Shown piece by piece: positions 1 to 3,542 of a DNA stretch of 64,000 nt; within the stretch, counting starts at the first letter, position 1, and the number at the start of each line of letters is the position of its first letter. A program made the translations under genes and the position numbers. The notes beneath the pieces are model-generated. The model searched no databases. It was not told where the DNA came from and saw nothing but the letters and a program-made list of their open reading frames with translations. Origin of the DNA: Escherichia phage UE-S1; the sequence record ON568341.1. One strand, written 5' to 3'.

Positions 1-70
1 TACGCACAGATCAAGCTGTTGGTCATGCACATAATACTCGTATATGGGTATAAGTACTTAAAGGTTATTT

Positions 71-144
71 GGTCAGTTAGTTCAGTTGGTAGAACGCTTC
101 ACTTCATAATGAAGAACTTACAGGTTCAAATCCAGAACTGACCA
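71..144 (+). tRNA. tRNA-like element, atypical (possible pseudo-tRNA or variant tRNA)
   Basis: Acceptor stem GGTCAGT/ACTGACC, D-arm GTTC..GAAC, T-loop TTCAAAT; but anticodon stem CTTCA/TGAAG encloses an 8-nt loop CTTCATAA and T-stem has 2 mismatches. Confidence 0.3.
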
Positions 145-151
145 CAAAAAA

Positions 152-1849
<1,698 letters not shown>

Positions 1850-2108
1850 AATATTCTCCTGAATTTGCTAAAAGTTATAATAATATTTAGTTACAATATT
1901 TATGAAATAGATTAAAAATTTGAAATGTGTTCAAAAATATTATAATAAATTTATAAAAAAAAATAAATGATTTTTTTTGAAACGGTTCAAAAAAATGTGG
2001 TATAATATATATGTTGTTCACGGAAAGATTAAGCGGGGATGCATGAGTTTGCTTAACGGAGATGATTGCAAATCCGATGTTAGTGGGTTAGAATCCCACA
2101 CTCACTGT

Positions 2109-2897: not shown

Positions 2898-3263
<366 letters not shown>

Positions 3264-3280
3264 TTCACATGATATAGGGA

Positions 3281-3542
<262 letters not shown>

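Follow-up and report, generated by a model that had tools for sequence, protein, structure and literature searches.

The element at positions 71–144 (plus strand) of the window, the 64-kb stretch of phage DNA analysed here, derives from a tRNA(CAU) gene and has an 8-nt anticodon loop. It is probably a pseudo-tRNA at an early stage of decay, a jumbo-phage tRNA-Met(CAU) gene copy that is damaged but still full length. The assignment draws on ARAGORN, on the Rfam tRNA model and on orthology to the tRNA-Met(CAU) genes of phages CBB, GAP32, BF and others. As expected of a pseudogene, the element descends from a constrained family, carries lineage-specific disabling changes and diverges at a rate not below neutral. 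The source is an E. coli jumbo phage, a divergent one of Asteriusvirus-like type (121Q/PBECO4 group), whose best matches in the phage collection are 89–97% identical over partial coverage, and the element lies at the edge of its tRNA array. The first-pass annotation had left two readings side by side, a decaying pseudo-tRNA and a variant of the frameshift-suppressor type. The former is supported by the orthologues, by the uncompensated changes specific to this lineage, by the substitution rate and by truncation or absence of the gene in relatives.

A tRNA body with an expanded loop and a damaged T stem

The sequence itself, ARAGORN and Rfam agree on an 8-nt anticodon loop (102–109; CTTCATAA, or CUUCAUAA as RNA) enclosed by the anticodon stem CTTCA/TGAAG (97–101/110–114), as initially described. 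The good acceptor stem (GGTCAGT at 71–77 and ACTGACC at 137–143, followed by the discriminator A144), the D arm (GTTC/GAAC at 80–83/92–95, loop AGTTGGTA) and the canonical T loop TTCAAAT of that description are likewise present, and all 16 pairs of the acceptor (7 bp), D (4 bp) and anticodon (5 bp) stems are Watson–Crick. The tertiary bases G18, G19, T54, T55, C56 and A58 are all intact. The variable region (115–119, plus strand) reads AACTT, in place of AAGTC in the orthologues, and the T arm (120–136, plus strand) reads ACAGG-TTCAAAT-CCAGA. The two T-stem mismatches reported at the outset correspond to A·A oppositions at pairs 49–65 and 51–63, both flagged as non-standard by Rfam. The element therefore has neither the 7-nt loop of a canonical tRNA, with U33 and a purine at position 37 around a 3-nt anticodon, nor its fully paired 5-bp T stem.

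ARAGORN, which had been proposed as a check on the loop, called positions 71–145 as tRNA-??? with a 4-base anticodon, tcat (UCAU), in the 8-nt loop and returned no fold with a 7-nt loop. An alternative register with a 7-nt loop was sought and not found: the bases that close the loop, C32 and A, form no pair, and both ARAGORN and Infernal model an insertion. In a scan of the 64-kb window, the element aligned end to end with RF00005 (model positions 1–71) at 51.8 bits and E = 3e-8, with one inserted anticodon-loop base of low posterior probability; this full-length alignment exceeds the curated gathering threshold of 29 bits. The resemblance to tRNA is far beyond that of a chance fold, there are clear orthologues, and the tRNA-derived gene is real.

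An orthologous family in Rak2-like jumbo phages

To find orthologues, a sensitive search of 50,697 phage records was run with window positions 40–175. Syntenic genes annotated as tRNA-Met(CAU) were found in Pectobacterium phage CBB, Cronobacter phage GAP32, Xanthomonas phage XbC2 and Serratia phage BF, with further syntenic copies in six Erwinia pEa_SNUABM phages, Yersinia phages fHe-Yen9-03 and fHe-Yen9-04, and Erwinia phage Kaldavass. Four jumbo-phage genomes from IMG/VR also have the orthologue. Among Escherichia phages in the 50,697 records, only JNE01 carried one. The orthologues stand after the same small ORF (CBB_492/GAP32_471-like), and a minus-strand gene often comes after them.

The same arrangement is found in the window. 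The 3′ end of a CBB_492-like small ORF (3–53, plus strand), recognized from translations and from the upstream alignment, precedes the tRNA as it does in Mimasvirus CBB, and the 70 nt upstream of the element encode the CBB_492 C-terminus (…DQAVGHAHNTR[I/V]WV…). This flank is about 92% identical to that of CBB, and an 8-nt GGTTATTT insertion just 5′ of the tRNA is common to both. Because the C-terminus and the insertion are shared, the locus is orthologous to the Rak2-like jumbo-phage tRNA(CAU) genes, and not a chance tRNA-like fold. In synteny and descent it resembles the tRNA-Met(CAU) genes of Mimasvirus (CBB_tRNA26, GAP32, XbC2) and Eneladusvirus (BF_tRNA29, pEa_SNUABM, fHe-Yen9-04), and it matches the Erwinia pEa_SNUABM and Serratia BF copies exactly in the acceptor stem, D arm and anticodon stem. 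It departs from these genes in the 8-nt loop, the two A·A mismatches, G46C, C48U and a weaker cloverleaf. An origin from the host, or as an attachment-site duplicate, was rejected: E. coli genomes match only weakly (73–81%), and to tRNA-Lys and tRNA-Met.

The family alignment comprised 14 copies and 12 distinct sequences. The loop CTCATAA and a T stem of the form (A/G)CTGG/CCAGT are common to all 11 intact orthologues, those of the four IMG/VR jumbo phages included. Because 96.4% of stem cells across the alignment are paired and four pairs (6–67, 11–24, 28–42 and 29–41) show compensatory double changes, the family is under structural selection.

Several features of the upstream region were observed in passing. 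The CBB_492-like ORF of the window stops at a TAA at 51–53 (GAA to TAA), eight codons earlier than in CBB, where the small ORF extends 9 nt into the tRNA. In the window and in CBB, GGTTATTT is a degenerate copy of the tRNA 5′ end, lying between an AGTACTnAAA motif and the tRNA. In the upstream flanks of all orthologues (window 40–70) this motif adjoins the tRNA 5′ end, strings such as GTACT…TATAAT precede other tRNAs of the array, and the AGTACTnAAA motif may be a phage promoter or processing signal. No sigma-70 promoter or terminator was found beside the element within positions 1–150, which include 70 nt of upstream sequence.

Lesions specific to the window copy

The extra T in the anticodon loop (position 103 or 104; placed at 103 in the alignment of the window with JNE01) is unique to the window and occurs in none of the other 13 orthologous copies. 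Four substitutions are likewise confined to the window copy: G46 to C (window 117) and C48 to T (window 119) in the variable region, and T51 to A (window 122) and T65 to A (window 136) in the T stem. The last two are uncompensated, and no other copy varies at columns 51 and 65; among the 12 distinct sequences only the window contributes unpaired cells at pairs 49–65 and 51–63. A further change, G59 to A (window 130), is common to the window and XbC2. Rfam scores were 60–73 bits for intact orthologues and 54.5–73.4 bits for full-length orthologues; the 51.8 bits of the window copy is the lowest for any full-length member.

These changes affect the predicted fold. The cloverleaf of 71–144 has a free energy of −15.9 kcal/mol, 3 kcal/mol above the minimum free energy (MFE) structure, which lacks a T arm; in its place the MFE fold has a GAACU/GGUUC hairpin made by the variable-region changes together with the 5′ strand of the T arm. 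In orthologues the cloverleaf (−18.7 to −23.6 kcal/mol) is the MFE structure or lies within 0.7 kcal/mol of it, and that of the window is about 6 kcal/mol weaker. With U51 and U65 put back in silico, the cloverleaf went from −15.9 to −22.2 kcal/mol. Removing the extra U alone left it still 3 kcal/mol above the MFE.

The T-stem pairs 49–65, 50–64 and 51–63 determine EF-Tu affinity, and recognition by MetRS depends on a CAU anticodon in normal loop geometry; because EF-Tu reads those pairs and MetRS the CAU loop, the lesions strike functionally critical places. The transcript would fold poorly into a cloverleaf and, for the same reason, the RNA would probably be poorly charged and poorly delivered, and hence have no programmed decoding role.

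The clustering of changes in the 3′ half raised gene conversion as a possible source. No locus with ACAGGTTCAAATCC was found that could have acted as donor, and the best match to the 3′ half of 71–144 in the phage database was the JNE01 orthologue itself, at 83.7%. With no donor tRNA found, gene conversion was rejected.

Divergence at or above the neutral rate

The window shares a cassette (78–2330) at 94–98% identity with JNE01, its closest relative, which allows the tRNA element to be compared with its surroundings. Within the cassette, a 565-aa tail-fibre/hydrolase-like gene (152–1849, minus strand; identified by PHROG matches and 97.8% identical to JNE01) diverges by 2.2% overall, by 4.4% at third codon positions and by 6.3% (13 of 207) at 4-fold degenerate sites, and intergenic DNA diverges by 2.7–4.7%. 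The corresponding value for 71–144 is 10.4% (7 substitutions over 67 aligned sites), plus the loop indel, and for a Cys/Ser chimeric pseudo-tRNA (2035–2107) it is 12.5%. All seven substitutions in the tRNA element fall in its 3′ half, where they form the densest cluster of the 2.2-kb alignment. The excess over the 4-fold rate is significant for the 3′ half (P = 0.01) and not for the whole gene (P = 0.13). Together, these values suggest that the tRNA element evolves at least at the neutral rate, and possibly above it.

Control tRNAs of the same array, Ser(ACU), the CAU tRNA at 3017 and Asn, show no differences over 242 positions in comparisons with JP4 and ph0011, and tRNA-Ser(ACU) is 100% identical in JNE01 as well. 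Of 11 window-lineage substitutions in the tRNA element and the Cys/Ser chimera, with polarity read by eye from outgroup alignments, seven are G/C to A/T and one is the reverse, a bias that appears to match the expectation for unconstrained sequence in a 34% GC genome.

A functional link between the element and the adjacent 565-aa gene was considered and rejected; the gene is tail-fibre/hydrolase-like, lacks a Pfam domain and bears no relation to tRNA biology. Its IMG/VR homologues (49% identity) have no adjacent tRNA(CAU).

Loss and damage in relatives

The JNE01 copy is truncated. It keeps a 7-nt loop and a good T arm, and its 5′ acceptor strand has been replaced: comparison of positions 3234–3306 of the JNE01 locus (L001) with window 71–144 places a recombination junction exactly at tRNA position 7/8. 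The Rfam alignment of this copy is confined to model positions 8–63, and the cloverleaf of the copy reaches −5.0 kcal/mol. Beyond JNE01, the gene was found in no other Escherichia phage and in no other sequenced Asteriusvirus among the 50,697 phage records. The copy in Yersinia phage fHe-Yen9-03 (positions 301–372 of locus L003) has the loop CTCATGA (A37G) and a 1-nt T-arm deletion, scores 54.5 bits and is not called by ARAGORN, though annotated as tRNA-Met; that of its sister phage fHe-Yen9-04 is intact. The fHe-Yen9-03 copy is thus independently degenerate. Because the gene is truncated in JNE01, absent from other Escherichia phages and damaged in fHe-Yen9-03, it has been repeatedly lost or broken and is dispensable in this genus.

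These observations allow us to propose how the element arose. The ancestor would be an elongator-type tRNA(CAU) gene of Rak2-like jumbo phages, located after a CBB_492/GAP32_471-like ORF. In the source phage the gene belongs to a mosaic cassette of about 2 kb that holds the tRNA, the tail-fibre-like gene and the Cys/Ser chimeric pseudo-tRNA. The cassette is set inside a tRNA array that includes a gene for an HNH homing endonuclease and whose order has presumably been rearranged as tRNA genes recombined with one another. The comparisons show that this copy, released from purifying selection, has gained one loop U and five substitutions, of which two disrupt T-stem pairs 49–65 and 51–63 and two change G46 and C48.

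Other tRNA pseudogenes and gene fragments of prokaryotic and phage genomes, for example those of PMC9897764, the JNE01 copy and the chimera at 2035–2107, resemble 71–144 in their descent from a functional family and in their disabling changes. They also resemble it in a neutral-like rate, in a recombination-scrambled array and in a homing endonuclease neighbour. In contrast to tRNA fragments, 71–144 is full length, has three perfect helices and is called by both finders, which would place it at an early stage of decay. Some evidence weighs against decay. Three helices and the tertiary bases are intact, so that some folding and processing is possible, and real tRNAs sometimes tolerate stem mismatches. 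Six changes are too few, and their absence from three helices is statistically uninformative either way; the non-significant excess over the 4-fold rate for the whole gene also counts on this side.

Rival readings: possible decoding roles and sequencing error

One rival reading takes the element as a functional tRNA that promotes +1 frameshifting or decodes quadruplets, with UCAU, or CAU plus an extra 5′ U, reading AUG-A and shifting by +1. The shift would either allow a frameshifted gene of the phage to be expressed or disturb translation in the host. A single-base insertion 5′ of the anticodon is the route by which SufJ-type suppressors arise (PMC4238358), the anticodon given by ARAGORN has four bases, and only one of the four helices is damaged, the T loop being intact. 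Many E. coli tRNAs, from a third of the isoacceptor classes, have also become weak decoders of quadruplets through point insertions (PMC9094753). Yet elongator Met, the scaffold at hand, is a poor quadruplet decoder in E. coli: it is one of only two classes that yielded no functional quadruplet tRNA from simple anticodon changes, and both needed the unrelated anticodon AGGG for even weak activity (PMC9094753). The known suppressors sufD (tRNA-Gly), SufA6 and SufB2 (tRNA-Pro) and SufJ (tRNA-Thr) share with 71–144 an 8-nt loop that arose by single-nucleotide insertion, and in SufJ the extra base is 5′ of the anticodon, as here (PMC4238358). Those tRNAs are otherwise intact, charged and laboratory-selected, whereas 71–144 has a damaged T stem and a Met(CAU) scaffold, and its expanded loop is kept in no relative. 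Yeast mitochondrial tRNA-Thr1, which reads CUN, is a natural tRNA with an 8-nt loop; it is conserved across species and is tied to a codon reassignment and a dedicated synthetase, whereas the window element is a singleton in a phage that uses the standard code (PMC3113583; PMC4267643). Pattern scans for the D arm and CTTCATAAT loop (TGGTAGARC-N6-CTTCATAAT) gave 1 match in IMG/VR, 23 in 241 M metagenome records and 21 in 185,579 GTDB genomes, none of them in a tRNA; the insertion was found in no relative or collection. It is accompanied by two uncompensated mismatches at pairs read by EF-Tu, by the loss of G46 and by divergence at or above neutral. The 64-kb window contains five in-frame ATGA sites at which a +1 shift could join two long frames. 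All five are ordinary gene junctions, with a start codon of the downstream gene's own 2–17 codons on, and control quadruplets are similar in count; no AUGA-dependent ORF fusion was found in the window. The frameshift-suppressor-type alternative offered at the outset is thus left without support, by a singleton insertion, a damaged body, a poor Met scaffold and the lack of an AUGA-dependent gene in the window, and we regard a functional frameshift tRNA as very unlikely. A more specific version, in which an expressed and charged 8-nt-loop Met-tRNA promotes +1 frameshifting at AUG-A during infection and its weak T stem keeps the activity tolerable, we give a very slim chance. If expressed and charged, the element would be a rare natural 8-nt-loop phage tRNA; literature on natural expanded-loop phage tRNAs yielded nothing specific to phages or to Asteriusvirus. 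SufJ offers the nearest mechanistic parallel to an insertion on the 5′ side of the anticodon. In the SufJ anticodon stem–loop, residues 34–37 of the 8-nt loop superimpose on a normal loop and decoding in the A site is in the zero frame, its frameshifting being attributed to distortion of the tRNA (PMC4238358), and a working 71–144 tRNA would be expected to behave in a SufJ-like manner at AUG-N.

That same zero-frame decoding by SufJ (PMC4238358) would permit an impaired but active elongator that reads ordinary AUG triplets and makes a marginal contribution to Met-tRNA supply. The Rfam score, well above the gathering threshold, is consistent with such a tRNA, and the other CAU tRNA of the window (3017–3091) is probably Ile2, so that 71–144 is not strictly redundant within the phage. 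The host, however, provides tRNA-Met, and the gene is missing from almost every sequenced relative in the genus; the T stem is destabilized, the cloverleaf is not the MFE structure and there is no sign of purifying selection, all of which make an impaired elongator unlikely. Alternatively, the extra T could be a sequencing or assembly error that masks a true 7-nt loop, CUCAUAA. CT to CTT lengthens a homopolymer by the least possible amount and is seen in this record alone, but a 2-nt run is not a typical context for indel errors, and an error would not explain five lineage-specific substitutions in the same 34-nt stretch. Nor does removal of the T rescue the T stem, the cloverleaf staying above the MFE by the margin given above. 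An error is accordingly highly improbable. Last, U-C-A of the expanded loop, which directly follows a U, could be taken as the anticodon of an opal (UGA) suppressor. Position 37 would then be U and not a purine, and all orthologues are CAU tRNAs. Moreover, long ORFs in the window end in TGA (19 of 74), TAG (9 of 74) and TAA (46 of 74), such that all three codons terminate, UGA reassignment is ruled out by TGA serving as a normal terminator, and the standard code fits the coding pattern; opal suppression has next to no probability. The decayed tRNA-Met(CAU) copy remains the preferred reading. For annotation, the tRNA-??? call at 71–144 is better labelled as a pseudo-tRNA from tRNA-Met(CAU), and the element should enter neither counts of functional tRNAs nor arguments for quadruplet decoding. 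It is ordinary and, taken alone, of low general interest.

Turnover of the tRNA array

The element nevertheless offers a snapshot of turnover in a jumbo-phage tRNA array. Downstream of the 565-aa gene, the Cys/Ser chimera (2035–2107, plus strand), 1.9 kb from 71–144, takes its 5′ three-quarters from a CBB-type tRNA-Cys(GCA) and its 3′ end from an Asteriusvirus tRNA-Ser that is intact in JP4, the join lying within a T-arm sequence common to both, GTGGGTT.GAATCCCAC. Its acceptor stem is unpaired; it is called neither by ARAGORN nor by Rfam at E ≤ 10, and to judge from its sequence it is plainly a dead pseudo-tRNA. With the JNE01 junction at position 7/8 and the T-arm join of the chimera, tRNA genes themselves would form the recombination junctions: crossovers at conserved tRNA segments seem to reshuffle the array on either side of the NUMOD4/HNH homing endonuclease gene (2331–2855). 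Redundant tRNA copies would then decay at about the neutral rate, and neighbouring functional tRNAs stay 100% identical.

Some further observations concern the array. JNE01 has the same Cys/Ser chimera with different lesions. An extended −10-like TGTGGTATAAT lies about 20 nt upstream of the window chimera, and positions 1933–1990, also upstream of it, are a 58-nt AT-rich insertion relative to JNE01, apparently a promoter-like GTTCAAAAA…TATAAT segment duplicated in tandem.

The array continues with tRNA-Ser(ACU) (2918–3009, plus strand), the CAU tRNA (3017–3091, plus strand), tRNA-Asn and then tRNA-Thr. tRNA-Ser(ACU), identical in JNE01, JP4 and ph0011, has the unusual anticodon ACU (A34) in the loop CUACUAA and could serve to read AGU specifically in an AT-rich genome; its loop differs from that of the TadA substrate tRNA-Arg(ACG) only at position 36. 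The CAU tRNA at 3017–3091 is tRNA-Met according to ARAGORN and tRNA-Ile in the ph0011 annotation. It has C4–G69, C5–G68 and G27·U43 and the T loop AUCGUUC (A54 instead of U54), and is probably a lysidine-type tRNA-Ile2. The T loop ATCGTAG of the CBB and Serratia BF orthologues of 71–144 is similar to this AUCGUUC. In JNE01, a 90-nt CAU tRNA with a long class-II-like variable arm (OR670491.1, 249265–249354; L001 3140–3229) scores 50.4 bits with Rfam and lies directly upstream of the truncated copy; its architecture is odd for a Met or Ile2 tRNA.
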